23,140 nucleotides of DNA, taken from IMG/VR virus record IMGVR_UViG_2869924733_000002; one strand, 5' to 3'. This document shows positions 863 through 23,140 of this stretch, piece after piece (the stretch's first letter is position 1; the number at the start of each line of letters is the position of its first letter). This stretch comes from a virus (taxonomy: Duplodnaviria; Heunggongvirae; Uroviricota; Caudoviricetes). Both the position numbers and the translations under genes were made by a program. A model generated the notes under the pieces. The model made no database searches. It saw nothing but the letters and a program-made list of their open reading frames with translations, and was not told the origin of the DNA.

Positions 863-1002
863 CACGCCATAACGGACTATATCGTTGGATATTACAGCGC
901 ACTAAGACCGCACGAATATAACGGTGGGTTACCCCCAAACGAATCGGAAAATCGATACTGGAAAAACTCTAACTCGGTGGCCAGTTTTTGTTGACCACTT
1001 CA
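863..1002 (+). mobile_element. IS911-type right-end remnant (OrfB C-terminus plus IRR), interrupted upstream by the IS600-like element
   Basis: Encodes ...[41 protein letters not shown], which I recall as the IS911 OrfB C-terminus. 978-1002 is the reverse complement of TGAAGTGGTCAACAAAAACTGGCCA (IS911 IRR from memory). Ends ...CA at 1002. Confidence 0.65.
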
Positions 1003-1512
1003 ATATGCAACGCCGGGTGGCATGGATAAACCCGGAAGAGAGTAAATCAAACCGCGCAATCGGCGTTGCGCTGAATGATACTGCATGTCGCGTTTTGAAA
1101 AAACAAATCGGGAATCATCACCGTTGGGTATTTGTGTACAAGGAAAGCTGTACCAAACCAGACGGAACGAAAGCGCCAACAGTAAGGAAGATGCGGTATG
1201 ACGCAAACAGTAAGGAAGATGCGGTATGACGCAAACACAGCCTGGAAAGCGGCGCTGAGACGAGCTGGTATTGATGATTTCAGATTTCACGACTTGAGAC
1301 ACACCTGGGCAAGTTGGCTGGTTCAAGCCGGAGTCCCGTTGTCAGGGTTACAGGAAATGGGTGGCTGGGAGTCTATCGAAATGATTCGTCGATATGCTCA
1401 CCTCGCGCCTAATCACCTTACCGAACACGCACGGCAAATAGACTCGATTCTGAACCCATCGGTCCCAAATTTGTCCCAGTCAAAAAATAAGGAAGGTACT
1501 AATGATGTGTAA
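1003..1512 (+). pseudogene. int: Lambdoid tyrosine integrase, 3' fragment: N-terminus removed by the IS, and frameshifted by a 28-bp duplication
   Basis: Catalytic C-terminal motifs are present ([37 protein letters not shown]). Reading starts directly at the IS end. The two ORF pieces (924-1229, 1198-1512) are offset by +1, which is exactly the shift a 28-bp duplication produces. Confidence 0.85.
1181..1236. repeat. Perfect 28-bp tandem duplication (agtaaggaagatgcggtatgacgcaaac x2)
   Basis: 1181-1208 and 1209-1236 are identical. Removing one copy restores ...[26 protein letters not shown]... Confidence 0.95.
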
Positions 1513-1650
1513 CTTATTGATTTTTGGGATAATAGGAACAATACACATAGGCGATAAGCTTTGTTTTTGTTGCCTTTTTTATTGTTCATTTTTTATAGAT
1601 ACCCCCAAAAGTACCCCCATATCTTTTTCCGCCCCTGAAATTTGGTTGTT
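1513..1650. other. Possible attachment-site/arm region 3' of the integrase fragment
   Basis: AT-rich and ORF-free, directly downstream of int. TACCCCCA occurs as a direct repeat at 1600-1607 and 1612-1619. No partner att copy is available in the window. Confidence 0.2.
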
Positions 1651-3165: not shown

Positions 3166-3200
3166 TGCTACGCGCGCGCGTACTTGTCCCGAAATACCAG
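3166..3200 (+). repeat. CG-palindrome motif, copy 1 (tgctaCGCGCGCGCGTACTTGTCcCGAAATaccag)
   Basis: One of three same-orientation copies. Contains the 14-bp palindrome TACGCGCGCGCGTA. Confidence 0.8.
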
Positions 3201-3236: not shown

Positions 3237-3518
3237 CTACCTTTGCCTCTTGCCGCCATTTAACCGGAAGGCGTTACCGTTCGGTTGCGCTATCCCCATG
3301 CGGTGTTGCGTTTCGGTAACAGCTTTATGCAGGTCGCCAAATTCCTCAACCTTCACGGGCGGGCGCTTCACGTTCTCCAGACACGTTTCACGGCGGCGCT
3401 TTATCCATTCCCGATCATCGTCCTCGGTGCATAACAGCATGACTTCCATCCATCGTGCGGCAGCTCTCCGGTATAGCCCTTTTGACTCCAGCTCTTCAGC
3501 TTTCCTGTCCCTTATCAT
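3237..3518 (-). CDS. PerC-family transcriptional activator
   Basis: AEELESKGLYRRAAARWMEVM...DDDREWIKRRRETC matches the PerC-family core as I recall it (GLxRRAAxRW...REWIxxRR..C). Confidence 0.75.
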   Translation of the reverse strand: MIRDRKAEELESKGLYRRAAARWMEVMLLCTEDDDREWIKRRRETCLENVKRPPVKVEEFGDLHKAVTETQHRMGIAQPNGNAFRLNGGKRQR

Positions 3519-3547
3519 TTCTGCCTCTCAGATTATATAGATAAGCA

Positions 3548-3678
3548 AAAAGGTGTTGGTTCAGTTGGTTCAGTTGGTTCAATTTGTAAAGAGTATTGTT
3601 TTTAAAAGAATTATTCGCAAAAAGTGAACCAACACACCCCATTTTTGAACCAACAAAAAGAGGCCGTGAACCAACACG
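3548..3678. repeat. Iteron/origin-like block L: 3 tandem GTTGGTTCA, an AT-rich spacer, then 3 inverted TGAACCAAC
   Basis: GTTGGTTCA x3 at about 3555-3581. (G/T)TGAACCAACA at 3624, 3646 and 3667, spaced 21-22 bp. An AT-rich stretch lies between the two sets. Confidence 0.8.
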
Positions 3679-3749
3679 CCGTTTAAAAACCGCTAATTAT
3701 GAGGGACATCCACCAGCACAGGGCTTGTCTAGTGCTGGTTAGGTGCTGC

Positions 3750-3941
3750 TCACCGCGCACGGAGCGGCGCTGGTTTGCTCCAGCGATATGCGGGGCTGGT
3801 CATCATTTCGCGGTACCGCCTGGCTATTACAGGGCCCTCTGCCAGCTGGCGCCTTAATTCCCGCAGTTCTGCCGGGCTGAGCTGGTGGCCGCCATGCTCC
3901 AGCTTGGCAATGGTCAGCAGCTCGATTTCTCGTGGTGTCAT
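3750..3941 (-). CDS. Small conserved hypothetical protein (63 aa), paralogue of 2754-2939
   Basis: Start chosen at MTPREIELL..., which has GAGGGG 5 nt upstream. Paralogy is described under 2754-2939. Confidence 0.65.
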   Translation of the reverse strand: MTPREIELLTIAKLEHGGHQLSPAELRELRRQLAEGPVIARRYREMMTSPAYRWSKPAPLRAR

Positions 3942-4086
3942 GGATTCCCCTCTGATGGTGATCGGCATTATATTGCTAGCCAGGGTGATTCTTCACTGGC
4001 CAGAGCCGTTGTGCGTGAAGTCTATGCGTGAACTCCATATGCTATGTGTTAAGTTACAGCTCAAAATGTCCTGTTCCGGTGGTAAC

Positions 4087-4143
4087 TTTTTGGTAAACAG
4101 CGTTTTGGTGGATACCAACATGGATACCTCGCTTTTGGATACC
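4087..4143 (+). promoter_or_regulatory. Direct-repeat array upstream of alpA (TTTTGG / TGGATACC motifs)
   Basis: GGATACC at 4110-4116, 4122-4128 and 4137-4143, and TTTTGGT at 4087 and 4103. The array lies in the divergent intergenic region between the 63-aa gene and alpA. Confidence 0.3.
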
Positions 4144-4192
4144 ACCCAAAGCCAGATTGTCACTATGCTTAATCTAAAGCAGAGGAGCCTCT

Positions 4193-4378
4193 ATGCGCCT
4201 TATCAAATTAAGCGAAGTCATGCTCAGAACGGGCTTCAAGAAAACGGCAATCTACTCATGGGTTAAGACGGGCACGTTTCCACAGCCAGTTAAAATTGGT
4301 AGATCAGCTAGATGGTCGCTTGAGGAGGTTGAAGCTTGGATCCAGAACAAACTTGATTCGCGGGCTGGCAACCAATGA
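4193..4378 (+). CDS. alpA: AlpA-family (prophage CP4-57-type) MerR-like DNA-binding regulator
   Basis: MRLIKLSEVMLRTGFKKTAIYSWVKTGTFPQPVKIGRSARWSLEEVEAWI is the AlpA/phage transcriptional regulator pattern. A GAGGAG RBS is present. Confidence 0.85.
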   Translation: MRLIKLSEVMLRTGFKKTAIYSWVKTGTFPQPVKIGRSARWSLEEVEAWIQNKLDSRAGNQ

Positions 4379-4910
4379 TTAGCTTTAATATCGAGTGGTG
4401 GATAGTCCATGGACAAGCTGATGGGCGCACTCGACGAAAACGATGCGCCAGGCGGACTGTGTCGCTCATAAACCGGGAGTTGGCCAGAGGACTTAGTTGT
4501 CCTTTGCAATTCTGCAGGTTCGCACGTGAAAGTAGCCAAAACCCTGCGAACCTGAGTGCAAACCTGCAACTGCGAACCACTGAGGTGGCCTCTCATAGCT
4601 GGTGGTCATACTGGATATTAATCAGGCCTGCCACAACCATAACAATCCATAACAGACGCATCGCACCAACAATTACTAATAGGTCCGCTCGCAACACTAA
4701 TTTTGACTAAGCCTGAACGCAATGCTCAGAAAGAACGAAGAATGGAATGAATCGTACCATCATGTTGCTCCATGATTTTTACGTTCAAGACAGTTGCTTA
4801 ATCTCGCCTCGCAATTCAGCCCCCTTGCCGTTATCGAGAAGTCTTTCTCCTTACGGTTAATGCTATCGGTCTTCATATTACCAGCAGCATACGCCATCCG
4901 ATTATTTCGA

Positions 4911-4943
4911 TGCTACGCGCGCGTACTTGTCGCAAAATACCAG
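4911..4943 (+). repeat. CG-palindrome motif, copy 2
   Basis: tgctaCGCGCGCGTACTTGTCgCaAAATaccag. It also shares ccgatt...tgcta in the left flank with copy 1. Confidence 0.8.
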
Positions 4944-5011
4944 GCAAAGGCCAGATTCAGAACGTCGTGATAACCACCAGTACAACATGAGAGGTCATGT
5001 AACGCGATTTA

Positions 5012-5383
5012 TCACACCAGATACATGTGATTGGTGTACCCGCATAAAACATCGTCATAGCGCGTCCTGTGCGCATATACGCCGATAATCAACACATCAC
5101 CACCACTCTGTCTCATGTAGAGAACAGTTTTATGGTATCCCCCCGCCATCGTGTGCATACTGGTCGGACGTAGTTGCAAAATTTTTTGCAACTGATACCC
5201 CTCGCGCGCGTACTTGTCTCGAAATTGGTGTTTTGCTGTGGCAGTGATATCAGAAAAATCTTCCTGTTTCACATAAAGCGGATATGCGCGTACTGTAACG
5301 GCCCCATCAACGGGGATCGGATTTGAAATCCCGACCCAAGCTATGTACCAAATGCCATGTCTTGGATATATGATGATTGCCAT
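5012..5383 (-). CDS. Doubtful hypothetical ORF
   Basis: The open frame has no RBS. It contains CG-motif copy 3 and a perfect 20-bp palindrome (5173-5192), so this DNA may be regulatory rather than coding. Confidence 0.25.
   Translation of the reverse strand: MAIIIYPRHGIWYIAWVGISNPIPVDGAVTVRAYPLYVKQEDFSDITATAKHQFRDKYAREGYQLQKILQLRPTSMHTMAGGYHKTVLYMRQSGGDVLIIGVYAHRTRYDDVLCGYTNHMYLV
5201..5225 (+). repeat. CG-palindrome motif, copy 3
   Basis: ctCGCGCGCGTACTTGTCtCGAAAT, in the same orientation as copies 1 and 2. Confidence 0.75.
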
Positions 5384-5411
5384 TCTAAACAAAGCTAAAG
5401 GGAGGGTTGGT

Positions 5412-5762
5412 GTGAATGCTCAGGCTGTCATCATGGTTTTCCTTGGTCTGATTGTCGCAAAACTATATCCAGACTGGTGGAAAGGGGCATTAGCAACTGT
5501 CGCCATCTATTTGCTTTTATCCGTCGTTAAGCGATCGTTCGTTAAGACCGTAAATCAAGCAAAACGTTTCTCATTTAAGAATTTAATAAACTATATTACT
5601 GGGCTTATTTTTTGCCTTTCAATTTTGATCGCCTCAGCTTTTTTGCCCGTATCAATAGCTAATTTTTTTGGCGCACCATATGAGGTAGGTTATCTATTCT
5701 CTGTTTTTTGTCTTGTTCTTTCCCTTCTTTACCTATGGATGAGAGCAAAGAACAAAAATTAG
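5412..5762 (+). CDS. Small polytopic membrane protein (about 116 aa from the GTG start), AT-rich moron-like gene
   Basis: AAAGGGAGGG lies 5 nt before the in-frame GTG at 5412. There are three to four hydrophobic segments. The gene is visibly AT-rich and converges on the gp16-like gene. Confidence 0.55.
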   Translation: MNAQAVIMVFLGLIVAKLYPDWWKGALATVAIYLLLSVVKRSFVKTVNQAKRFSFKNLINYITGLIFCLSILIASAFLPVSIANFFGAPYEVGYLFSVFCLVLSLLYLWMRAKNKN

Positions 5763-5780
5763 CCATCCATGGCTAACCAG

Positions 5781-7879
5781 TTATTGAGCTTCTTTTTGTG
5801 ATGCCTGTGCGACTCTGGTGAGCGATTGTGTGACCGTACTGATCGCTCTGTCATATGCTGTGCTACCTTTTGGCGTATTTGCCAGACGTAACAAGGCATT
5901 TCGTATAACAGGGCTTTCGTATGCCTTCGCTGCTCCGCCTACGGCACCAGCAGCAGGAACAACAAACGCAGCCGTTTTTAGCATCCCCGCTAATACTGCT
6001 GCGTTTATGATGCCACCACCAACTAACAATCCATAAAGCTGCTGACCATTTAAGTTTTGAACGTTCGCTTTTGCCGCGTGTCTTGTATCGTTGAGGTATT
6101 TAATAACGCCGTCCAGTTCCTTTCCATGTACGCCTTTAAAGAAAGTTGCTGATTGCTTCCTGTTCCGGTGTAACGCATTAATAAACTTCTCAACACTGAT
6201 ATTTCCAGACGGATCAGTCGCCTTATCTACAGCATTCTGAACTATGGCTGCTCGTGCGTTTTGCCTACCATTGTCATCCAGAAGCCTGTAAAGCTGAGAA
6301 CGTTCTGATGGGCTTTGGCTAAAAACGAGTTTTGTTACATCCTCAGGCGTGGCCTTGCCGCTGGCTATTGCCTTTTGAACGCGCGTTCTTCCCATCATGT
6401 CATTGAATTTAGACCATGAGCGATCAACCCTTGCCATATTAATGGCTTCGTCTGCTCCAAGATTTTTGGCTACGGCTTTTTTCATATCCGCCGTATATGC
6501 CTTGTAGATAATATCGCTGGCTTTCTGGAGCGTATCTTTATCAACAGTGTCAGATGACGCCATAAATCGCTTTCGAAGATCGGTTCTGTTTTCCCTCGCC
6601 AGACGCAGGTCATTTGGTCCGCTGGTGATATCGTCTTTAAATTGCTGCAAGACTTTTACCGCGGCTCTATCCTGAGATTTGCCCGGGCGGCTTAACACGG
6701 CAATCTGATTGTCGATAGCTTTTACCGTGTTTGAGAGATCGACAGGGGTATCCCCCATAGCGTCAATTATGCGGTTATATCGCTTTCCTGCTGCCTCAAT
6801 GAATTTTTGTTGCCCTTTAGTCGCAGATTCATAAAGCTGTTTATCAGAAATGCCACCCAGACCATCGCTAAATGTTCTGACTAAATTTTCTCGTGCTTGT
6901 TGTTGATTCAGCCGATTCTTACCGGTTCCAAAAAAAGGAACTCTTTCGCCTAATGTCTGAGCCTGACTCTGCATAAAGGTTTTATCTTTCAGCATGTCAC
7001 TGGTCATTAACGGCAGATTTCTTTCCGATGCAAAGTCGACAGCAGCCTTTGCTTCAGGCGACATATCACCACGAACAGCCCTCGAAACCGCACTCGCTGT
7101 ATTTTCCAGCCCCTTACCAATACCACCAATGCCAGCAGAAATTACCGTTTGTAACGGATCAATATCTTCTCCACCAGCAAGGCTGGTGGCTCCCTGTAGT
7201 GCTAAATCTGTAGCTGCTGATTTTCCTATAGCACCAAGCACCGTTCCAGCCCTGCCCACTGGTGTAAACGCCAACGCATTAGCAAGAAACGAAGTCAGGT
7301 CTTGCGGTGATAAACCCGGCTTGTTCAGGGCATAATCACCTGATGGCAGAGAAACGATAGTATTCCCCTTCTCATCCTGCCTTAATGTCGCCCCCATTCC
7401 CTGAAGAATCTTTTCCTGAGACGCGTCAGAGCCGAAAAGTTGAGACCATCCAGCCTTTAGGGCATCCATGCTTAGTGAGTTCAATTCTGGGGCAGAGGTG
7501 ACATTTTGCAGTCTCTCCATCTCTGGAGTCATTCGGCTTTCGCCTGTTATAGCATCGCGCATCGCAGCCCCAAGACTGGCTCCCTGTTCTGCTGAACGCT
7601 CAAGCCCCTCTCTTTGCTGAGTAGCTAACTTTGCATACCCTGACGCAAGAGAATTATCAGATGATGTATGTTGAATATTTTGAGTTGCTGATTGGGATCG
7701 GTCTATTTCATTCGTTGATGGTAGTGGATAGGCAGCATAAAAAGCCTGCTTAGCCTGCTCTACACTTTCTCCGGCTTGCGGGGCAACGACTTCATTGAAG
7801 TATTGCTCCTGAGCCTGCGCTTTTTGTTCTGGTGCTAACGCCTGATACTGTGGAGAGGCGATAACATCTTTCCATGCTT
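5781..7879 (-). pseudogene. P22 gp16-type DNA-transfer (ejection) protein; its first 7 nt (8798-8804) are separated by an IS
   Basis: Third and largest gene of the gp7/gp20/gp16-order cassette. Joining 8804..8798 to 7879..5781 gives a 701-codon frame beginning MAKAWKDVIASPQYQALAPEQKAQAQEQYF... The start overlaps the gp20-like stop (TAATG). Confidence 0.7.
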
Positions 7880-7881
7880 TA

Positions 7882-8797
7882 GGCTGTGTCCCTTAATCAT
7901 CTGAGCTATAGTAACTGTCTGTTTACACAACATATTGAACTATGGCTCGCTACGACCTTCCCGATGAGGCATGGACCATCATCAAGCCCCTGTTACCTCC
8001 TGAACCCGCCACACCACGGGCCGGACGCCCATGGGCTGAGCACCGTAAAATCATCAATGGCATGTTCTGGGTGTTATGTTCCGGTGCACCATGGCGCGAT
8101 TTACCCGAACGATATGGGTCATGGAAAACTGTTTATAACCGCTTTAACCGATGGTCAAAGTCAGGCGTGATTAATATTATTTTCAACAGGTTGCTTTCGC
8201 TACTTGATGCAAACGGCTTTATTGACTGGTCTGCCACCGCGCTGGATGGCAGTAATATCCGGGCGCTGAAATGTGCCGCCGGTGCTCAAAAAAACATCCC
8301 GATATCGACGGAGATAATGGGCCGGGTCGCTCTCGCGGCGGTTTTGGCACCAAAATCCATCTGGCAACAGACGGAAGTGGCCTCCCGTTAAATATCGTGC
8401 TAAGCCCCGGACAAGCTCATGAAAGCCAGTTCGCGCAACGACTTCTGGACGGGATTGGCGTTCAGCGTCAGAACGGCAGCATGAAACGCCGTGGACATGC
8501 GGTACTGGCTGATAAAGCGTATTCAGGGCGCGCATTGCGCAACGAGCTGAAAAATAACGGTATAAAGGCAGTAATCCCCCGAAAGTCAAATGAGAAAATG
8601 GCATCGGATGGACGTGCACAGCTTGATCGTGATGCGTACTGCAATCGTAATGTCGTTGAACGGTGCTTTGGGCGGCTGAAAGAATATCGCCGCATCGCCA
8701 CGCGTTACGACAAAACGGCGAGAAATTACCTGGCGATGGTGAAACTGGGCTGCATCCGACTCTTTTATCAACGCTTACGTAATTAAGGGACACAGCC
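7882..8797 (+). mobile_element. IS5-family (IS427-group-like) insertion sequence, 916 bp
   Basis: Perfect terminal inverted repeats GGCTGTGTCCCTTAAT (7882-7897 and 8782-8797). TA duplication at 7880-7881 and 8798-8799. Confidence 0.9.
7942..8786 (+). CDS. IS5-family DDE transposase made from two frames by a -1 frameshift at an A7 run
   Basis: OrfA (7942-8391) and OrfB (8271-8786) overlap. A7 lies at 8288-8294. A -1 slip gives ...GAQKKHPDIDGDNGPGRSRGGFGTKIHLATDG... Confidence 0.85.
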
Positions 8798-8803
8798 TAG
8801 CCA

Positions 8804-9887
8804 TTAATCACCCCATAGTGAAGAAAAGTTACTGCTGGCTGCTGGCTGTGATACCTGCTCAGATTGCGGCAATGTCTGCGACGAAGAAGAAGTTCCTCTG
8901 TCAACTGCTGAAATAACCCGCAAAGCATCATAAGCTCGACCAGAAGCAGCTTTCAGCGAATTGAACTGGTTTTCCATCTTCCGGCGCTTGGTATCAATGG
9001 TTTTTGTGGAGTCGCCAGGCTGAGGGAAATACATTTGATAATATTTTGACATTTCAGCAGGTGCGATAGCTGCCCCTGTTTCCTGACGGAGTATTGCCAT
9101 TATTGCGTCATTAGCATTAACAACGTATTGCTGCTCTGTTGGGCTGAGCGTTAAGTTAGCCAGCGTCCCATTACCCAAAGCATTATTAATGATCGCCACT
9201 CGCTGTGGGCTAAGCTGGTCTTTCAGTGTATCTATTGAATCAAGAGCATCCCTAACCCTGTATGCAAATCCAGCAGCTTTTTTAGCCCCTTCTGGCGACT
9301 TTTCCATGATCTTTTGGGCTGTTGGCAAAGCTATTGGACGAAACCCATCTCCAGATATTGGCTGGTTTAGTTTTCCCTGCTCTTCACTTCCGTCTGTGTA
9401 GTATTTTGTGACAGTGCCATCATCGTTTTCTCTAACACTCATTAATTTTTTGGCGTTTGTATTAATTCCAGCCGCTGCCGCAAATGCCGCCGCCCCCTCT
9501 GGATCCGCCTTTAACATTTGAGCGTACTGATTGTAATTCTGCATTGCTGCTGTTGGTGCATATGCTGACGTTAACGCATTTGCTCGGCTAATATCCTGCC
9601 CTCTCGCCTGAAGTGCTTCGCCAGCCTGATTGCTGCGGATTGTCTCTGCCAACTTGCCACGCTCAATATCCCGACCTTCCATTTGATCTTTGATATCGAA
9701 ATACTTCTCATGACCGAGAGAAAACAGTGCCATACTACCAGCAAGCCGCTGGAATCCCTGTGGATCATTAACATGCATTTCGGCAACAGACTCAGGAGAA
9801 ATTCCCAAGCGACGCATTTCATCTTCGTTATCTGCTATGAATTTTCCAAATGCCCCAGTTCCGAGCGAAGATGCGATTTGAGCACTA
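8804..9887 (-). pseudogene. P22 gp20-type DNA-transfer protein, 3' portion (split by IS630)
   Basis: Continues in frame from 11041-11380 once IS630 and one TA are removed (...HLATSAQIASSLGTGAFGKF...). The restored gene is 473 aa. I recall P22 gp20 as about 471 aa. Confidence 0.7.
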
Positions 9888-11040
9888 AATAGCTGCGCTT
9901 AATACCGCTACACTTTTGCCAGTCCATGTTTGCCTCCGGGGAATGGGCTGACGGTTTCCATAAAATGGCGAACTTTTTTCAACAGTTGCCACATTGAGCG
10001 GCACTGATGATTACGCGTTATTGTGTCGTGAAGTGCCTGCCATAGCCGTTCAACATGATTCACCCATGGCGAGTAAACCGGCTGATAAATGACCCTGAAC
10101 TTCGGGTTCTCCTTCAGCCAGCTCTGTGTTTCCCGGCTTTTGTGGATAATGTAGTTGTCCACGATCAGCGTGATGGTTTTCGCCCGACGGTATGTCGCTT
10201 TAAGCCGCTTCAGCAGGCTGATGAACAGCGCCGAACTTTTGCTGTTGCCGCCCACATAGCTGACTTTACCTGTCCCGCTGTGCAGCGCTCCGGCCAGATA
10301 ATATTTTTCATTCTGTCCCGGCGTGACCACCCGTTTTTGCTGTCCGCGCAGTTGCCAGTCCGCACCGATTTTGGGATGAAGATGGATATCCACTTCATCT
10401 TCATAAAAGACCGGATGCTCTGCGCTGCATTCGTCCAGTGCTTTATGGATTGCTGCCATCTTTTCATCTTTATGCGGGTCACGGATACGCAGAGTTGGCG
10501 CAGCCCTTCGCCACACAATCCCCGCAGACGGCAACCAGCGGCGAACGGTTCCGGCATTTAACTGGCAACCGGTTATCTCATTGATTTTTATTGCCAGCAG
10601 TTCTGTACTCCAGCGTGAACGCTGGTAGCCAAAGTCGCCGGGAGAATGTTTTACCAGCTCACGTAACAGTGTGCAGATATGCTCAAACGGCCAGCGACGG
10701 GCACGCCCGGCAGGTAATGATTTCAGTCCCTCAACACCCGACTGCGTGAACCAGTTAATCCAGCGTCCAACAGAGGAACGGGCGCAGCAGAGCGTTCTGG
10801 CAACGTCGCTGACACGGTCGCCCCGGTGCAGCATCAGCATGGCAGTCAGTCTGCGGGCATAATTTTTATCGTGTGTTTTATGGATGGCTTTCTGCATCAG
10901 GCGTCGTTCGTCACGGGAAATTGGTGCTATGATCGGCATTGCTCAGTCCGGTTGGTGATTTGTTTTGATTTGGCGATTGATCAGATCGCACAATCCGGGC
11001 TAAGTTCCCTCAAAATGATCTACTATTCCGCGCAGCTATT
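9888..11040 (-). mobile_element. IS630, 1153 bp
   Basis: Imperfect terminal IRs beginning AATAGCTGCGC at both ends. TA duplication at 9886-9887 and 11041-11042, which restores a CTAG target. The 1153-bp length matches my recollection of IS630. Confidence 0.9.
9908..10939 (-). CDS. IS630 transposase (343 aa)
   Basis: Full-length ORF MPIIAPISRDERRLMQKAIHKTHDKNYARRL... recognised as the IS630 (Tc1/mariner-like DDE) transposase. Confidence 0.95.
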   Translation of the reverse strand: MPIIAPISRDERRLMQKAIHKTHDKNYARRLTAMLMLHRGDRVSDVARTLCCARSSVGRWINWFTQSGVEGLKSLPAGRARRWPFEHICTLLRELVKHSPGDFGYQRSRWSTELLAIKINEITGCQLNAGTVRRWLPSAGIVWRRAAPTLRIRDPHKDEKMAAIHKALDECSAEHPVFYEDEVDIHLHPKIGADWQLRGQQKRVVTPGQNEKYYLAGALHSGTGKVSYVGGNSKSSALFISLLKRLKATYRRAKTITLIVDNYIIHKSRETQSWLKENPKFRVIYQPVYSPWVNHVERLWQALHDTITRNHQCRSMWQLLKKVRHFMETVSPFPGGKHGLAKV

Positions 11041-11380
11041 TAGTCGCAAGATGACCAATAGAATTTCTCTGGTCGTCATCAATAAAGCCCATCCCTTTCT
11101 GAACGCTTTCAAATTCTTCTGGATACTCAGAAATAAGACTGCGCATTTTGTTTCTGTCTCCAGACTCAAAAGCCCCGGCATATGCTTTCTGAAACTCTGC
11201 TTTACGCTGTTGTTGACGTGCCTGCTGATTAATCTCAGCAACGCCTCTTAGCCCCTGTAGCGCCATTAAACCTACGTTTGGGTGCTGCTGATACTGCACA
11301 GGCTGAGGAACGGAAGAACGAGGAGCATTATCATTTTGCGGTGCCATGCTAGGCAGCCCGCCAAGTTGCCATGTCGCCAT
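11041..11380 (-). pseudogene. P22 gp20-type DNA-transfer protein, 5' portion
   Basis: The start overlaps the gp7-like stop (TAATG). The apparent stop at 11036-11038 lies inside the IS630 end. Confidence 0.7.
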
Positions 11381-12057
11381 TAGAATCCAAGCCCCCCAAC
11401 AAGACCAATAAGCCCACCACCAATAGCCCCGGCGACATTACCTATACCCGGAACAACGGAACCAAGTTGCGCACCCGCTAAAGCGCCTGATGCCGCCCCA
11501 CCAATACCACGCGCAAGACTGGATGGCTGCTGCGCCTGACCTGCACGAATAGCGCCAAGCCCCTGCAAGAGTTGCCCGGTATTATTGGCGTAGTTTTGCC
11601 CTGCTGTTGCCTGCCCTGATGCCGCATTCATCCCGACATTTAGCAGGTTTCCATAATTTTGCATTTGCCCACTGAGCCAATTGTTATAAAGCATGGGCGC
11701 AATGGAAGATAACTGGTTACTGGTAGCTGTTGAGCCAAGCCCCCCGGTAGCTTCTGCTGAGACAAGGTTCTGATAACGGGCCTGATCTGCCTGTGTTTTA
11801 TATAAACCAGAACCAAAGAAATCATTCGCGGCTTTATTCTGCCCTTCCAGAGTCATCAGTCCTTGCAGTTGTTGTAAAGCAGGCAATCCGACTTCTGCAT
11901 ACGGCTTGAGATTATTCATCACCGTATTCCACTGCTCGCGCTGCAAATCAATTGCCTGCTGCTGGGCCTTCGCCTGAGCTTTAGAGGCACCACCATCACC
12001 GCCTTTTTCGTATACGGCACGATTGAGATGTTTATGAGCTATATGGGTAATTAACAT
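11380..12057 (-). CDS. P22 gp7-type DNA-transfer (ejection) protein, 225 aa
   Basis: Size and position match gp7 (about 229 aa as recalled). It has a Gln/Asn-rich body and a Gly-rich hydrophobic tail, and is translationally coupled on both sides. Confidence 0.7.
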   Translation of the reverse strand: MLITHIAHKHLNRAVYEKGGDGGASKAQAKAQQQAIDLQREQWNTVMNNLKPYAEVGLPALQQLQGLMTLEGQNKAANDFFGSGLYKTQADQARYQNLVSAEATGGLGSTATSNQLSSIAPMLYNNWLSGQMQNYGNLLNVGMNAASGQATAGQNYANNTGQLLQGLGAIRAGQAQQPSSLARGIGGAASGALAGAQLGSVVPGIGNVAGAIGGGLIGLVGGLGF

Positions 12058-12512
12058 TCGCTGAATTCCTTATATTGTTGCCGAGTTAACTGATAAAGCG
12101 TTACGCCGACGGGTTTACCACATCTGATATAAGCATCATCAAGGTGACCAACACGGGTAGCGCCAAGCAAACGGATAATTGCCCGTCCATATTTCGTGGT
12201 GTCAGGAACCATAGTGATGCTGTTAAGGAATGGTGAGTTTTCGAGAAGCCATTTGCAGAATAATCGATGCCCTTGCAGTGCATATTCACCACGGAATCCG
12301 GGGTCGTACACCGCATGGCATTCAACAACGCTATGCCAGAAGTTACGCACTTCATGAACGCCAGCCAGCACTAATCCTTCGTAGATGCCGAGATATACCG
12401 CATCAGGCTTGATGTAGTACGTGTGCCCCGGCTCAACAATATTTTCGGTATTGCCTGGCTCGTTAAGAAAGGCCTGTAATCGCACAGGGTTATCAATAAA
12501 TTTTAGTTCCAT
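12051..12512 (-). CDS. gp14-position protein (DUF2824/GNAT-fold-like), 153 aa
   Basis: Sits directly upstream of the gp7-like gene, as gene 14 does in P22-like phages. YDPGFRGEYALQGHRLFCKWLL resembles a degenerate GNAT motif A. The family name is from memory. Confidence 0.55.
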   Translation of the reverse strand: MELKFIDNPVRLQAFLNEPGNTENIVEPGHTYYIKPDAVYLGIYEGLVLAGVHEVRNFWHSVVECHAVYDPGFRGEYALQGHRLFCKWLLENSPFLNSITMVPDTTKYGRAIIRLLGATRVGHLDDAYIRCGKPVGVTLYQLTRQQYKEFSEC

Positions 12513-12528
12513 GCGATGCCATCCATTT

Positions 12529-12690
12529 TCACATACAGCCTGCCAGCGCCTTATCTATTAACCCTCGTGCAATTTCATGCAGAGTTGGCGCTACTCCAAT
12601 TCCTGATTTTTTACGCTGCTCTTCCTGAATTTTCTTTATCGCTTCCATTTGCTTCTCACTTATCAATACCGGCTTTACTGAAATAGCCAT
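12529..12690 (-). CDS. Ribbon-helix-helix (Arc/Mnt-like) protein, 53 aa (below the ORF-track cutoff)
   Basis: My own translation gives MAISVKPVLISEKQMEAIKKIQEEQRKKSGIGVAPTLHEIARGLIDKALAGCM. The pattern is beta strand, helix, G-x-x, helix. RBS AAGGGGG lies 5 nt before the ATG. Confidence 0.55.
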   Translation of the reverse strand: MAISVKPVLISEKQMEAIKKIQEEQRKKSGIGVAPTLHEIARGLIDKALAGCM

Positions 12691-12702
12691 AACGCCCCCT
12701 TA

Positions 12703-12729
12703 TAACTGTATAAAACAACAGTTATTATA
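12703..12729 (-). promoter_or_regulatory. LexA (SOS) box overlapping a perfect TATAAT -10
   Basis: TAACTGTATAAAACAACAGTTA at 12703-12724 is CTGT-N8-ACAG with 7-bp palindromic arms. TATAAT (minus strand, 12729-12724) abuts it, about 34 nt upstream of the RHH start. Confidence 0.6.
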
Positions 12730-12784
12730 GTTTCACAAATCGCAATATTCATCATCGTAATTGCAGAATATGAAACAAATAGCA

Positions 12785-12816
12785 CAAAAAAATGCCACCG
12801 CTCAGTAGCTGGTGGC
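12785..12816 (-). terminator. Rho-independent terminator (minus strand)
   Basis: GCCACC-N11-GGTGGC followed by A+T7 on the minus strand. It lies between the primase/ori region and the SOS promoter. Confidence 0.5.
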
Positions 12817-13011
12817 GTCGTTCTGTGTGTCAGGTTTTGACAGGTTTTTTATGGACTCTAAAAACTATATTTATGGTGTCGCATTACTCTTCACGGCAGG
12901 CGCTTTTCAGTTCTGCCCTTGCTTCTGGCTCCATTGGTAATTTGATTCGCGATCAGCTATGCGGATGGTTTGCTGAACAGGCATAACAACTTCTCAGAGG
13001 CTGTTTTTTGA

Positions 13012-13086
13012 ACTACGAAAATTTCGTAGTGCTCACTTTCAAAAACGTCACGCCCTTGTACACAGGATTTTACGAAAGTCTCGTAA
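13012..13086. promoter_or_regulatory. Two operator-like palindromes sharing a TACGAAA half-site
   Basis: ACTACGAAA-a-TTTCGTAGT at 13012-13030 and TTTACGA-aagtc-TCGTAAA at 13068-13086. Confidence 0.3.
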
Positions 13087-13136
13087 AACACTCTCTGATG
13101 CCAGCCAGGTGTTGTGCGCATCAATTCAGTCACATT

Positions 13137-13256
13137 GTGTTGGTTCAAAATACCGTGTTGTTGGTTCAGTGTTGGTTCAATAAAAAGAATAAAATCCTTA
13201 TAAAACAATACCATTTACAAATTGAACCAACTGAACCAACTGAACCAACACCTTTT
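13137..13256. repeat. Iteron/origin-like block R, immediately 3' of the primase-helicase gene
   Basis: TGAACCAAC x3 in tandem at 13223-13249, an AT-rich spacer, then three GTTGGTTCA-type repeats at 13137-13180. This is the mirror image of block L. Confidence 0.8.
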
Positions 13257-13274: not shown

Positions 13275-16034
13275 TCATTCTTCAGATGAGTTATAATCTC
13301 CTGGCTGGTAATTGAGTACATAAACGTTTATTTGTCGTCCCTGAATACGTGGTGATTTTCTTTGGTATCCACGACCGCTGTTTGGTGGGGTTAGCATCCC
13401 GGCTTTTTTCAACACTTCAGCAAACTGTTTTGCGTTGAAACCACATGCGATCTCCTTTTCAAATGTGGCCGGGAATGTGTAGAAAATCATTGGGCTTTCG
13501 TCATGTTCTCCACGCTGACGGTATCCGGCTAAATCTTTGATGGGCAAATCTGCCGGGCTGTATGGAAATGGTGCAAAACGGCTAAGCCCATAGGCATTAA
13601 GAAATGCCTCCGTTTGTTCAATAATCTGCTGATGTTCTTTGTTACCTGTGCCGAACTCGCGCAACCATGCGTTATAGCTGTGCTGTATCGCATCACGGCA
13701 TGTCTGAGCATCCCAGCCTGTTACAACCTCGCCTAACAGCAATGCGGCCTCCAGAATGGCAAATCGCGCGGCTACACGGTGAACCTGCTCACCATAATCG
13801 GATGGGATCAGGTTTCTCCATCTGCTTTCGCAATCACGAACGGTTTTAATAGCCTGTTGCTGGTGGTCTGCCAGCCATTTAATCCACTCACGCCCGGCTG
13901 CGCCGTGGTGATGCTGGTAAGCGTCTTTCAGTGCGTCTGCGTGCTGTTTTCCGTTCTGGTAATCGTGAAAGCGTACTGCTTTACTCAACGGAATATTCAG
14001 CAGTCGCACCAGTTGCCCGGCTTTGGTTTTTCGCCCGGAAGTAGCGATAAATGTTTCTAAATCCATTTCTCCGGTGCTGATTGCCACTGTACGCCAGCGT
14101 TTTAGATCCCGGTTTCCACCATCTTTAGCGCCTTGCAGTTTCCCTACACCGTTAAATAACGCATAGGCAGACTGTGAAACGCTGACAGGATCAGCGCCCT
14201 GACCAACTTCATCAAGCGGCATTAGTCCGTCATTGTGGGCGGCGGCCTCATTTGCCAGCCCCAGCGCGGTTCCGTACCACGTCAGCCGCAGTAAATCAGG
14301 GTTGCCGTATAAGCTGCTCGCCACGTTTGCCGTGGTGGTCTTACCTGCGCTCGACTGCTCATAGAAATGAATGCCGAACCCGTCAGCGCCCACCAGCCCA
14401 ATCAATGGCGCTGCCAGTGCTGCGCCGATCCCGGTCATCATTGAATAGTTACCAAAGGCCAGACGCGCCACGTTATCACGCCAGCTTTTCGCGCTCCCTG
14501 AGACGGTATATCCGGCTGCGGCTGAGCTTCTCCCGCTGAACAGCACAGGATTTTCAGGTGTTCCGATGATTTCCCCATCAGGCATGATGTACGCTCCGCA
14601 TTGCCAGCCAGTGGCATGAGCAACACGCCACAATTCACGAGAGCCACTGCGTTGTAGCCAGTCTGCCAGTATTGCTCTGAGGCTGCTTTTGGTCGTGACA
14701 TTTACCCCACCAGCTTTAAGTGTGCGCCATCCTTCACGTTCACCAATATCAGCCAGTGGAATGGCAGCGGTTGTCGGCGTTTCAGAACCAAACGACAGCC
14801 AGCGAAGAATGAGATACTGGTCTTTATCGTCTCTGCCAGTACCGATAACGCTTAACGGAGAACATAACCAGCTTTCGTTATTGATGATTTCTCCACTCTG
14901 GCTGTCAGCTCTCGGAGATACCCAATAAATACCATCCTCGCGGCTTTCTATTCTTGGTTTCAGTGGGTCGGTATCCATAACCTTAAAATCGCTTCCCTCA
15001 ATGGTCTGTGGCTCCTGTTTCACGCCATTACCCTGTGGTTGGTACATTGACTTATTGAACGCTTCTGTGGCGCATTTAATGCCGTGTTTTTGGTGGTAAT
15101 CATTCCAGTCTGCTTTGTGATCTGTCGGGGGTAATGCCACCCATCCAGAAACAGATAAAGCTGCTTTTTCTGCTGCTATTCTCCCCGTGTTTTGTCTTCC
15201 TTCGCTGTGGTCGTTATCCGCAGCAATGATGATTTGTGCTGAAGGAAATTTATCCCGCAGTACCTGGGCGACATATAACAGGTTCCCGGCATCAATCGCC
15301 GCCACTGTCAGCGCCTCTGGACGAATTAAATGGGCAGATAATGCCGTTGCCAGCCCTTCTGCGATTAAGATGCTCTGTGTTGTTTCTGGCGCGTTTATGG
15401 CGTGATATGCCCCCCGCTTTGCTGAACCTGTCAGGAGTCTTTTTTCACCATGTGATGTAATAGTCTGTGCTGCTGTGACTGCGCCGGATTTATCCACCAG
15501 CGCCAGCAACAGAGATCCATCGGGCAACACGGGGAATGTAAAATCACCTACCCCTTTCGCAACCAGATAATCAGATTTGCCGTTTACAGCCTTTCTGCGC
15601 ATGTCATCAAACTGACGGGAAAACGTATCCCGTCTTTGTTGTTCGTCCTTCTCTGCCCTTTTCAGGCGCTCCTGTTCGCGTCGCTGGCGCTCGGTTTCCA
15701 GTTGTTCCCGTTTCTGGCTGGTGGCTTCTGGTGTTTCCGTTGTCCGGTAATCAATACCCAGAACATCAGCGGCAAGAAGCGCCGCCTCTGTTGTGTCGCA
15801 GTTATTTACGCGTTTAATTAAATCCAGCCCATCACCAGCGCCGCACTGATTACAGATGAAGCTACCGCGCCCGTTGTCATCGAACCGGAATCGATCTTTG
15901 CCCCCACATGCAGGGCAGGGAGCATGACGGCGCGGAGAGTCAGGGACATTTATGTTCAGGCAGCCCAGCACATGAGGCCAGTTGTTTTCAGACGCACTGA
16001 TAACCTGACGGATAAGATCAATGTTTCGCATCAC
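13275..16034 (-). CDS. P4 alpha-like primase-helicase (zinc ribbon + TOPRIM + DUF927/SF3-type P-loop), 919 aa
   Basis: CPACGGKDRFRFDD...FICNQCGAGDGLDLI zinc ribbon, a TOPRIM-like ILIAEGLATA...IIAADND, and Walker A in YEQSSAGKTTTANV. The start is GTG 16034 or ATG 16031. Confidence 0.9.
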   Translation of the reverse strand: MMRNIDLIRQVISASENNWPHVLGCLNINVPDSPRRHAPCPACGGKDRFRFDDNGRGSFICNQCGAGDGLDLIKRVNNCDTTEAALLAADVLGIDYRTTETPEATSQKREQLETERQRREQERLKRAEKDEQQRRDTFSRQFDDMRRKAVNGKSDYLVAKGVGDFTFPVLPDGSLLLALVDKSGAVTAAQTITSHGEKRLLTGSAKRGAYHAINAPETTQSILIAEGLATALSAHLIRPEALTVAAIDAGNLLYVAQVLRDKFPSAQIIIAADNDHSEGRQNTGRIAAEKAALSVSGWVALPPTDHKADWNDYHQKHGIKCATEAFNKSMYQPQGNGVKQEPQTIEGSDFKVMDTDPLKPRIESREDGIYWVSPRADSQSGEIINNESWLCSPLSVIGTGRDDKDQYLILRWLSFGSETPTTAAIPLADIGEREGWRTLKAGGVNVTTKSSLRAILADWLQRSGSRELWRVAHATGWQCGAYIMPDGEIIGTPENPVLFSGRSSAAAGYTVSGSAKSWRDNVARLAFGNYSMMTGIGAALAAPLIGLVGADGFGIHFYEQSSAGKTTTANVASSLYGNPDLLRLTWYGTALGLANEAAAHNDGLMPLDEVGQGADPVSVSQSAYALFNGVGKLQGAKDGGNRDLKRWRTVAISTGEMDLETFIATSGRKTKAGQLVRLLNIPLSKAVRFHDYQNGKQHADALKDAYQHHHGAAGREWIKWLADHQQQAIKTVRDCESRWRNLIPSDYGEQVHRVAARFAILEAALLLGEVVTGWDAQTCRDAIQHSYNAWLREFGTGNKEHQQIIEQTEAFLNAYGLSRFAPFPYSPADLPIKDLAGYRQRGEHDESPMIFYTFPATFEKEIACGFNAKQFAEVLKKAGMLTPPNSGRGYQRKSPRIQGRQINVYVLNYQPGDYNSSEE

Positions 16035-18212: not shown

Positions 18213-19061
18213 GTGCCACCTCCATGCGGATACGACCAGCAAAAAAGCAGATGTGATCGCGCACCAGAGAACGGCGAGCATCGCGTTCAGACTCGGCAGC
18301 AATATGATGAATTTTGGCGGTAATTGTCGGGCAATCGCGGCGAACTGCGGCGATAATCCAGATAAATTGCGGTTTTTGGGTAGTGGTAGTAGCCAGCATG
18401 TGGCAGCCTCCTTGTACTGGGAGTTCTTCCCACCACCGGAGCTGCGAAACTCGCTGGTGGTGGACTGAACAGAGTTCGCAGTACCGGCGTACAAGGAAAC
18501 CGGCCAGCCTTTCGGCTGCCCTGTCCAGCCCACCATAATTTTGCAAGCGACGCGGATTATAACCGCATCACTGAAAAAAGTGTGAGTCTGGCTAACGGCA
18601 CAAAAAAAGACGCTCGGCGCGTCATGTGTCGCCTCGTACATTTCCGGGCTGCGAAACCCGGCACCCGTTTTATGAGGTGCCTTATAACCATAAACCGTGT
18701 TGCCGCATAACGGCAAGCTCTTTTTTATGGACTCCGAAAACTCACTATTGGAAGCACCAGATGCACAATACATCGCGCTCATTTCGTTAACGTCGCGCGT
18801 GTGGACGAAGGTTTTTGTGGAGTCACTACGCGAGCAGAGAAAGCCATCTACGACCAGAAATTCTCTGGCGCAGCCGCCGACCTTCTCAACGCTAACACCA
18901 TCGACCGTAATTTCTGACATAGTTAAGGCATCCGCTCCCACCACCAGAAAATGATAAACTTTGCTTGTATCTGCTGTATTAATGCCAGACTTTGCTGTCA
19001 TATTGCTGGATTTTGGCGACATACCAGCCAGTGAAAATATCTTCTTCTGGACGGTTAGCAT
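17994..19061 (-). CDS. 355-codon open frame, probably composite; only the 5' part (about 18546-19061) is likely to be an independent gene
   Basis: The start is strongly coupled (GGAGGTTAACAAATG overlapping the upstream stop). The frame then runs through the Ash/RNA region, across the Icd-like gene in another frame, and into the 72-aa gene. Confidence 0.35.
18205..18399 (-). CDS. Host cell division inhibitor Icd-like protein, 64 aa
   Basis: [21 protein letters not shown]...[10 protein letters not shown]...FFAGRI matches the P4 Icd-like pattern from memory. AAGGAGG lies 7 nt upstream. Confidence 0.65.
   Translation of the reverse strand: MLATTTTQKPQFIWIIAAVRRDCPTITAKIHHIAAESERDARRSLVRDHICFFAGRIRMEVAHD
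18400..18545 (-). ncRNA. Candidate P4 CI / P1 C4-type immunity RNA region (the stretch usually annotated as 'Ash family protein')
   Basis: Translates as [34 protein letters not shown] (Ash-like). It holds a GNRA hairpin (CAGCC-GAAA-GGCTG) and a CCACCACC/GGTGGTGG stem. The position upstream of icd matches P4. Confidence 0.3.
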
Positions 19062-21783: not shown

Positions 21784-21925
21784 ACGCCACCCCGCGCCCC
21801 TAATTCTGACGGCTATGCCAGCCCGTAGGGGTGTACGGGTTTTCGGGGATCAGCCTAGACATAGCCTATTCTTTGTTCGTCTACATAAGTCTACTACCAT
21901 TGCTTAACACGGTCTATTCATACAG

Positions 21926-23140
21926 TTAAGCTCGTTTCCCAAACGAACCATGAACAACGTTCTCCTCCTTCTCCAGCGCATCCATATAGTCGGCATACCA
22001 TTGAAGCATCTCCCGCCTTCCATCCAGATATTGCGCATGGTTGTATGTGCCACGAATTGAGTTCTTATCAACGTGAGCGAGCTGCGTTTCTATCCACGCG
22101 GTGTTATAGCCCTGCTCATGCAAAATCGTGCTCATAGTGTGCCGGAACCCATGACCAGTTACACGTCCAGCGTAGCCAATGCGCTTAAACACTTGGTTTA
22201 TGCTGGCCTCACTCATTGTTTTCCTTGGATCATTGCGCCCGGGAAACATAAGAGGGTAATTGCCTGTTATTTCTCTAATCTTCCCAATAAGCGAAAGAGC
22301 CTGATCAGACAATGGCACAATATGAGGCCGCCGCATTTTCATACGTGAAGCGGGTATCTCCCAGATAGCCTTGTTGAAATCAATTTCATCCCATAATGCG
22401 CCACGTAGTTCGCCAGTCCGCAAGCCGGTGATAATCAGTAGACGAGCCGCCATAACAACCAATGCGCTTCCTGAGTAACTGGACAATGCCTTGAAAAAAT
22501 CAGGTAATTCTTTAGCTGTAAGGAAAGGGTAATGATTAGATTCATGGCCTTGCATCGCGCTAGTAAGGTCTGGTGCAGGGTTATACTCTGCGCGACCAGT
22601 GACTATTGCATAGCGGAAAACTTCCCCGCACCGCTGCCTCACTTTTTTGGCTTTTTCTGTAGCACCGCGCCCCTCGATGCGCCGCAGCACATTCAGAAGT
22701 TCAAGTGGTTTGATTTCGGCGATTGGTTTTTTGCCAATGTAAGGGAACACATCTTTGTTGAAGGCTTCGAGGATGTCTGAAGCATAACCAGCAGACCATT
22801 TTTTTAATTTGCTGCTGTGCCACTCAAGGGCAATATCTTTGAAGGTGTTGTTTAACTGCGTTTCCCGGGCAATCTTTTCCTCTCGTTTCGCTTCCATCGG
22901 ATCGATACCACCAGCGATACCTCTTTTCGCATCTTCACGTTTTGCCCGAGCATCGGCTAGAGTAACCTCAGGATACACACCTAGTGCCAATAGCTTCTCT
23001 TTACCAGCTACACGATATTTAAGTCGCCAGTATTTACCTCCATTAGGTTTTACCAAGAGATACAAACCGCCACCATCGGCCAGCTTGTAAGCCTTCTCTT
23101 TTGGCTTGGCTGTGTCTATTTGACGGGCATTGAGTTTCAC
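21926..23140 (-). CDS. int: P4-type tyrosine integrase (DUF4102 N-terminal domain); start at or beyond the window edge
   Basis: N-terminal ...AKPKEKAYKLADGGGLYLLVKPNGGKYWRLKYRVAGKEKLLALGVYPEVTLADAR. C-terminal HGFRHTMSTILHEQGYN..WIETQLAH..........Y catalytic region. Confidence 0.9.
   Translation of the reverse strand: MKLNARQIDTAKPKEKAYKLADGGGLYLLVKPNGGKYWRLKYRVAGKEKLLALGVYPEVTLADARAKREDAKRGIAGGIDPMEAKREEKIARETQLNNTFKDIALEWHSSKLKKWSAGYASDILEAFNKDVFPYIGKKPIAEIKPLELLNVLRRIEGRGATEKAKKVRQRCGEVFRYAIVTGRAEYNPAPDLTSAMQGHESNHYPFLTAKELPDFFKALSSYSGSALVVMAARLLIITGLRTGELRGALWDEIDFNKAIWEIPASRMKMRRPHIVPLSDQALSLIGKIREITGNYPLMFPGRNDPRKTMSEASINQVFKRIGYAGRVTGHGFRHTMSTILHEQGYNTAWIETQLAHVDKNSIRGTYNHAQYLDGRREMLQWYADYMDALEKEENVVHGSFGKRA

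Follow-up and report, generated by a model that had tools for sequence, protein, structure and literature searches.

In the phage-inducible chromosomal islands (PICIs) of Gram-negative bacteria and in the staphylococcal pathogenicity islands (SaPIs), the replication origin lies directly 3' of pri-rep and consists of two iteron sets around an A+T-rich region (Fillol-Salom et al., 2018; PMC6092414). The SaPI Reps are self-loading helicases with a C-terminal winged-helix domain that binds 6–12 iterons just past the rep gene (PMC9371898). EcCIMP1 is a 19,963-bp PICI of E. coli MP1 with the att core TCCTATTATC; it is excised and transduced only upon induction of the P22-like helper Kapi1 (PMC11773190). 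PICIs spread virulence and defence genes, and replication after induction determines the efficiency of their transfer. Here we analysed a stretch of 23,140 nucleotides (the window) from the IMG/VR virus record IMGVR_UViG_2869924733_000002 (Caudoviricetes), which contains two iteron blocks 9.6 kb apart: block 1 (right) follows a primase-helicase gene and block 2 (left) adjoins a PerC-type gene. These blocks are probably the two halves of the bipartite replication origin of one EcCIMP1-like PICI at thrW, with cargo between them. The likely origin of the EcCIMP1-type island is thereby pinpointed; its excision and transduction were known, and its origin was previously undescribed.

The 43 nt at 3548–3590 (aaaaggtgttggttcagttggttcagttggttcaatttgtaaa) are the exact reverse complement of 13214–13256, and a repeat finder extended the inverted repeat to 3548–3612 and 13192–13256 (65 nt, 91%). 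The repeated unit is the 9-mer GTTGGTTCA. The window contains 12 exact copies, compared with 0.10 expected from shuffles, and all of them fall inside the two blocks. Each block is composed of three head-to-tail tandem iterons, a 43-nt A+T-rich spacer (79% A+T in the left block and 84% in the right) and three inverted iterons (Table 1). The blocks can be aligned over ~130 nt. Within their tandem-distal halves, left and right agree in the iterons and differ in the intervening sequence; the inverted iterons of the left block are phased 21/21 and those of the right block 11/21. Block 1 begins 18 nt past the primase stop codon, and block 2 begins 29 nt upstream of the PerC ATG. The earlier note on this DNA had described an exact 43-bp inverted repeat, its continuation on each side into an A+T-rich spacer with three opposite, similar but diverged repeats, and its adjacency to the primase stop and the PerC start. 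All of this was borne out, with the repeat being longer than first noticed. Single-stranded DNA folding yielded strong hairpins for both blocks (z = −5.3 and −6.1). As such folding does no more than reflect the inverted iterons, a cruciform cannot be deduced from it, and this reading was rejected.

The gene preceding block 1 encodes a fused primase-helicase (Pri-Rep). Its helicase part matched PDB 8tch_A, a 'Pathogenicity island protein' (E 4e-12), and weakly PDB 5dgk_A, an 'Active helicase' (E 0.01). Diverged primases with 62–81% amino acid identity precede the same GTTGGTTCA block in other islands and genera, and the counterpart of block 1 was found behind the diverged primase genes of loci L004, L014 and L016 and of many species. 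Visual inspection showed its 11/21 phasing in L004, L037, L052, L008, L011 and L039. Since the same block trails diverged homologues, block 1 can be regarded as an ordinary PICI-type origin and GTTGGTTCA as the cognate iteron of this primase lineage.

Origins of this type were reportedly described by Ubeda et al. (2007, 2012) as well. Block 1 shares their position, with the iterons immediately 3' of the gene for the fused primase-helicase initiator, and both blocks share their layout, with opposed iteron sets (3 + 3 iterons) around an A+T-rich centre. Moreover, the helicase is homologous to a staphylococcal pathogenicity-island protein (8tch_A). Block 2 of the window does not share the position, as it lies 9.6 kb off, whereas the second half in compact relatives does, being located <300 bp after block 1. 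The differences from the described origins are that two such modules face each other in this family, and that the second module of this island is 7.5–9.6 kb away across a cargo cassette. The literature searched yielded no description of a bipartite or split layout, and a full-text search for the iteron sequence returned unrelated papers only. The feature is genuine and probably of functional significance, namely a bipartite, here split, variant of the known PICI/SaPI origin, inside a published island with a previously undescribed origin.

Relatives were found by scanning IMG/VR for the triple iteron and by searching one genome per species for relatives of the TOPRIM/DUF927 primase. Locus-specific iterons were mapped in each match, and roughly 60 species-level loci were classifiable. 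The IMG/VR loci L007, L018, L022, L025, L043, L044, L046 and L053 were set aside as unrelated tandem repeats (3–7 copies, no island genes). In ~35 of the ~60 loci we found a compact origin, with both halves in 250–300 bp directly after the primase gene. The compact unit comprises a block-1-like module and then an inverted second module, typically in the patterns ++----+++--- or +++-----+---. The second module of L008, L011, L039 and L117 is visibly homologous to the left block of the window: it shares the 21/21 phasing, the 'ctttacaaat' beside the tandem iterons and the outer flank '...tttttgcttatctata...'. In L117 (Lonsdalea), the unsplit origin is followed by the same orf61-PRiA4-orf119 genes that trail PerC in the window. 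A split origin was detected in 8 further species-level loci and two IMG/VR contigs, with the second module 4.8–10.4 kb downstream; the genera are Lonsdalea, Rosenbergiella, Chimaeribacter, Pantoea, Serratia, Leclercia and Cedecea. In the present island and in these 8 species, the halves are 5–9 kb of variable cargo apart, and all split loci keep the same inverted arrangement of the halves. The cargo in their intervals differs from that of the window and includes tape-measure proteins, SLT-domain proteins, Fic and a Beta-family protein. These comparisons established the relationship between compact and split forms, and they identify the two blocks as paralogous putative origin modules that belong to a single PICI and correspond by homology to the halves of the bipartite origin found across the family.

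The primase relatives use at least seven other iterons (GTTGTCTCA, GTCGGTTCA, GTTGTACCA, AGTGTGTCA, CGTGGTTCA, ACGGGTTAY and GGTCGGTTT). Every compact origin carries the identical iteron variant in both halves, as expected if one protein, the cognate primase-helicase, recognises both. The shared iteron changes are thus well established, and there is good support that both blocks are putative binding arrays for the primase-helicase of the island. The proposal in the earlier note that these are origin-like arrays linked to the primase was supported by the way the blocks are built, by their location 3' to the primase-helicase gene and by iteron variants that relatives share between both halves.

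In terms of sequence, both blocks sit in one EcCIMP1-like PICI integrated at thrW. On the minus strand, the island starts with the integrase, DUF6387, an AlpA/excisionase-like helix-turn-helix (HTH) protein, AntA, Ash, several small open reading frames (ORFs), the primase-helicase and block 1. The P22-type ejection cassette, small HTH and hypothetical genes, block 2 and PerC follow, and beyond PerC there are a 61-aa ORF, PRiA4_ORF3 and a 119-aa ORF. The integrase, the AlpA-type regulator, the primase and a specific att site, together with the lack of capsid or lysis genes, are the features of a PICI. The att core TCCTATTATC was found once in the window, at 1528–1537; the island therefore spans from this site to beyond the right end of the window. 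Integrase fragments at 924–1512 (plus strand) are consequently outside the island. Excision and transfer were demonstrated for EcCIMP1 itself (PMC11773190), and the island in the window was assigned by gene content, att core and identity.

Regions aligned between the window and the EcCIMP1 locus of MP1 (L149) are 98–99% identical, with the same layout and the same two iteron blocks, and block 2 of EcCIMP1 is identical to that of the window. The two islands thus have the thrW site, the att core, the primase, the PerC protein and both blocks in common. They differ in that the window copy has two insertion sequence (IS) elements in its ejection cassette and another allele of the injection protein, and that an IS3-type element lies past its left end, while block 1 of EcCIMP1 is phased 21/21 through a 21-bp duplication. 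Several E. coli genomes carry the same island without the two IS elements at 99.9% identity, adjoining paoABCD/yagU. In strain 789, the island is located between tRNA-Thr (thrW) and a truncated LysR gene, and it contains a single integrase and both blocks in the order thrW-int...primase-block1-cassette-block2-PerC, followed by a chromosomal gene. These genomes established the single-island context of the blocks.

The ori/crr system of the satellite P4 is said to have been worked out by Flensburg & Calendar (1987) and Ziegelin et al. (1993), and the earlier note had considered the pair of blocks as an ori/crr analogue stretched by insertions. P4 needs both of these regions in cis to replicate. 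There are clear likenesses. P4 also has two clusters of one short iteron kilobases apart (~4.7 kb), one of them (crr) directly after the primase-helicase stop codon, and each crr unit has tandem plus inverted iterons (NC_001609). The island in the window further carries P4-like RNAs (C4/CI-type, isrK and int-alpA). However, the P4 clusters flank the alpha operon, with ori on its far side, whereas both blocks of the window are downstream of the primase. P4 crr consists of two 120-bp direct repeats (NC_001609), as opposed to the two inverted modules here, and the iteron sequences are unrelated (8 bp in P4 and 9 bp in the window). No alpha-type (D5/DUF5906) domain was found in the primase-helicase, which was set apart from P4 alpha by domain family, with no direct comparison. 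We therefore rejected membership in the P4 ori/crr group: the helicase is of the DUF927 type (SaPI Rep/SCCmec Cch-like), and both the positions and the orientation of the repeats differ. The stretching, in contrast, held up in essence, since the halves are adjacent in relatives and are separated here by ~7.5 kb of cargo and IS elements of 915 and 1153 bp.

The explanation that we favour is as follows. Each half would be a complete SaPI/PICI-type module, in which the 43-bp A+T-rich stretch could melt and successive inverted iterons are spaced by one or two turns of the helix. If Pri-Rep behaves like SaPI Rep, its hexamers may assemble at the inverted iteron sets and melt the spacer between them and the tandem copies. 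The presumed halves are contiguous and face each other right after the primase gene in most relatives. This lineage and, independently, several other genera have a variable cargo module between them; in the window, it is the P22-type ejection cassette enlarged by two IS insertions. The cargo module thus leaves one half at the primase stop and puts the other beside PerC. Our preferred reading of the distal half is a second initiator-loading site, which would act with or alongside block 1, although it could equally be a site of copy-number control or an operator. Block 2 could accordingly be a second origin, an enhancer of block 1 by looping in the manner of P4 crr, a copy-number limiter or a regulator of perC.

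For the family as a whole, these results describe a bipartite origin, in which the iteron code changes in both halves together and between the halves of which cargo repeatedly lodges. They provide a handle for work on replication and copy number, and for annotating the origin and the limits of the cargo in these satellites, as well as a model of cargo-module exchange that can be tested. They contain no new replication principle. A wider version of the model is conceivable, but we consider it tentative. The interval might be a dedicated cargo slot, with the near-invariant iteron cores as portable recombination anchors through which PICIs with different replicases swap helper-matched DNA-delivery modules (ejection, tape-measure and SLT-domain proteins), and with the distal half as a functional second initiator-loading site. 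In that case, the excised circle would fire from two near-opposite origins, or the two origins would loop together like P4 ori and crr.

Several observations weigh against the favoured explanation. In ~12 relatives for which 9 kb or more of sequence is available downstream, block 1 stands alone; hence, the second half is not obligatory. These single-block relatives suggest that the second block is not universally required in cis. In one compact subtype, the spacer of the second half is G+C-rich rather than A+T-rich. An orphan block 2 with all six iterons intact occurs in islands without the cognate primase. Among these, the dinD/yicC island of E. coli ECONIH1 (L002) has a DUF5906 replicase, and its own origin-like region (L002 16580–16680) uses GGTACAGGT. 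L003 is a truncated copy of the dinD island, in which a primase homologue was not detectable. L068 is a copy of the dinD/yicC island that has lost its replicase and has none at present, and L067 (E. coli 2013C-4361, thrW locus) is a rearranged island with primase and cassette lost. Since it is found intact in primase-less islands, block 2 can travel with the PerC/cargo module. Recognition of the iteron is a further weak point. We infer that the primase-helicase recognises GTTGGTTCA through its C-terminal region, as residues 801–919 displayed the largest identity contrast between same-iteron and different-iteron homologues (mean-identity difference of +0.16 to +0.23, compared with at most +0.13 elsewhere in the primase). 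In the close pair L072/L077, the helicase core is 94–100% identical and identity at the C-terminus drops to 53–82%. This link to iteron specificity is suggestive, as the signal is modest and confounded by phylogeny, and no residue strictly specific to the GTTGGTTCA group was found among the primase homologues compared. A single-sequence AlphaFold model of the C-terminus was unusable (predicted local distance difference test score, pLDDT, of 39). Finally, the EcCIMP1 paper does not mention a replication origin (PMC11773190).

The alternative that survives best takes block 2 as a non-functional remnant or passenger, i.e., half of an ancestral origin that rides with the PerC/cargo module and has stayed intact through recent recombinational spread. 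The orphan copies and the single-block islands fit this view, and so does the location of block 2 at a mosaic junction. E. coli has two alleles of the inner half of block 2, which are ~70% identical over the spacer-and-iteron half and 57–59% in the adjoining inner flank. The tandem iterons are surrounded by a 111-bp core, which comprises the first ~45 nt of perC, the leader, the three iterons themselves and the next 9 nt. This core is 97–100% identical in all copies, compared with ~66% for the body of PerC and ~70% for the inner half. The PerC and inner-half alleles occur in all four possible combinations (window, L148, L005 and L002), indicating that recombination occurs within the 111-bp core. 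Judging from these alignments, the tandem-iteron core doubles as the junction at which modules are shuffled by recombination. A passenger, however, would hardly account for the constraint on the diverged alleles, both of which keep all six iterons with their 9/9 and 21/21 phasing and the 43-bp spacer length. It is also at odds with the concerted iteron changes in the halves of compact origins across at least seven specificities and with the maintenance of the split form in 8 other species. We therefore consider a passenger role unlikely.

A regulatory iteron array was also considered, either as a copy-number/handcuffing locus like P1 incA or F incC, or as an operator through which the primase would control the perC-like gene. 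Separate control iteron arrays are established for the P1 and F plasmids, and block 2 resembles these in being a second array of putative initiator binding sites apart from the origin. The distance of only 29 nt from the PerC ATG would suit an operator; a perfect TATAAT was seen by eye between the tandem iterons and this ATG, and a TTGCTTATCTATA-like motif is conserved after the tandem iterons in several genera. On the other hand, a sigma-70 promoter scan around both blocks, run along with a terminator scan, gave no promoter-like site, the block 2 region (3400–4000) included, which leaves the TATAAT as the sign of a putative perC promoter inside block 2. In compact relatives the next gene is SSB or another one, and PerC is 0.5–2.8 kb away or on the other side. 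In addition, the P1 incA and F incC arrays act as negative control elements and have no A+T-rich centre, whereas block 2 has the full origin layout including such a centre, which a control array does not need. On balance, a purely regulatory role is improbable.

The PerC gene itself is the same in the window and EcCIMP1: the DNA is identical (330 nt upstream of the tandem iterons; ~285 nt within the 282-nt gene), and the gene is annotated as the same protein, WP_000617443.1, in EcCIMP1 and L001. Against the NCBIfam ANR (anti-virulence regulator) family it scored E 1.6e-7 and 31.1 bits, just short of the curated cutoff (32). The match is in line with published work in which the EcCIMP1 homologue acted on LEE1 as a repressor and not as an activator (PMC11773190).

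The earlier note had also raised inversion of the 9.6-kb cargo segment. The 43–65 bp inverted repeats would drive this inversion, and both orientations would coexist in the population. In its favour, the 43-bp repeat is perfect, and one Shiga toxin-producing E. coli genome (L067) has its PerC region inverted relative to int. We searched for the predicted inverted junction with a chimeric query, counting matches with a coverage of 80% or more as full length. The inverted junction was found in 0 of 656 E. coli genomes with partial matches, and the native junction was full length in 102. In every related locus examined, the cargo genes run in the same direction as the primase. Block-mediated inversion was rejected for L067 too, as its breakpoints are off the blocks and its ends carry IS1203 (at one end of the rearranged region) and deletions. 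Except for the IS transposases, no invertase/recombinase family was detected among the interior ORFs scanned, although small unknown ORFs could still hide one. The analysis thus established the lack of inversion, leaving this alternative with a very slight likelihood. The earlier note had further suggested two satellites. These would be inserted head to head, with the left one degraded, and the plus-strand integrase fragments to the left of the left block seemed to favour this. It can practically be dismissed, as the att core places these fragments outside the island, EcCIMP1 excises as one 19,963-bp unit holding both blocks, strain 789 has a single integrase with both blocks between thrW and the chromosomal flank, and in the compact island L117 the same distal genes follow an origin that is not split.

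Table 1. Features of the EcCIMP1-like island in the window (positions count from the first nucleotide of the window; iteron copies are given by their first nucleotide).
Feature	Position	Strand	Remarks
Block 1, primase-proximal origin half (putative)	13130..13256	-	tandem iterons 13223-13249 (copies 13223, 13232, 13241, minus); spacer 13180-13222; inverted copies 13171, 13160, 13139 (plus)
Block 2, distal origin half (putative), inverted vs block 1	3548..3680	+	tandem iterons 3555-3581 (copies 3555, 3564, 3573, plus); spacer 3582-3624; inverted copies 3625, 3646, 3667 (minus)
Fused primase-helicase (Pri-Rep)	13275..16034	-	919 aa; zinc ribbon, TOPRIM, DUF927 helicase (Pfam)
PerC/ANR-family small regulator	3237..3518	-	PF06069, E 3.7e-30
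Variable cargo interval between origin halves	3681..13129		P22-type DNA-ejection genes, small HTH and hypothetical genes
DUF2824/gp14-like	12051-12512		within cargo interval
gp7-like	11380-12057		within cargo interval
gp20-like, interrupted	8804-9817 plus 11041-11380		within cargo interval
Injection protein	5781-7882		within cargo interval
IS element, 915 bp, DUF4096 + DDE_Tnp_1	7883..8797		27-bp terminal inverted repeats, 3-bp target duplication; at gp20/injection-protein junction
IS630-family element, 1153 bp, DDE_3 transposase	9888..11040		TA target duplication; within gp20-like gene
Distal att core TCCTATTATC, left island boundary	1528..1537	-	published EcCIMP1 core; same core flanks EcCIMP1 in L149
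Island integrase	21926..23140	-	adjoins thrW in related genomes

The ejection cassette placed within the 9.6-kb segment by the earlier note was recovered there as homologues of the P22-type gp14, gp7, gp20 and injection proteins. Without the two IS elements, the blocks would be ~7.5 kb apart, as in L001. These insertions disrupt the cassette, and this copy of the island is probably defective for its function. Helper-type DNA-delivery proteins recur downstream of the origin in islands of the primase family (L087, L137, L141, L086 and L004). Those of other genera are tape-measure or large SLT-domain proteins, and the P22 homologues of the window occupy 5781–12512. L002 shares the ejection cassette along with its orphan block 2; its GGTACAGGT repeats lie just upstream of the shared cassette, the boundary of which, at '...gttttacgagact...', corresponds to window position ~13085. 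L067 has gained IS1203 and a Dcm/HNH pair; its PerC-block 2 segment has flipped with respect to int, and the adjoining chromosomal region has been deleted.

Two paralogous small ORFs (2754–2939 and 3750–3968, both on the minus strand; 61 and 72 aa) bracket the block 2-PerC unit. They are 1002 bp apart with 72–77% nucleotide identity, and neither matches any family. A 28-mer of the type CGCGCGCGTACTTGTC(C/G/T)CGAAATACCAG occurs in three copies of 82–93% identity at 3173–3200, 4916–4943 and 5203–5230. Just outside the att core, there is an IS3-family transposase ORF (1–819), followed by the integrase pseudogene fragments, in which a 28-bp tandem duplication (1174–1201/1202–1229) may explain the break in the reading frame. 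At the same position, E. coli SWHEFF_68 has a shorter integrase fragment, and MP1 has an Arm-domain fragment.

Rfam searches gave gathering-level matches, all on the minus strand, for the C4 antisense RNA (18453–18540), the isrK Hfq-binding RNA (18603–18680) and the int-alpA RNA (21798–21865). The C4 antisense RNA belongs to the P4 CI-type immunity RNA family. These P4-like regulatory RNAs map to the Ash ORF or its vicinity and to the gap between int and the gene that follows. Among the relatives, L100 (Yersinia pekkanenii) has one bipartite origin unit at the end of its tblastn match and at least two more complete ones, located ~1 kb and 5.7 kb farther upstream. The match itself spans ~3.9 kb as compared with the usual ~2.7 kb, which suggests tandem or repeated copies of the replication module.

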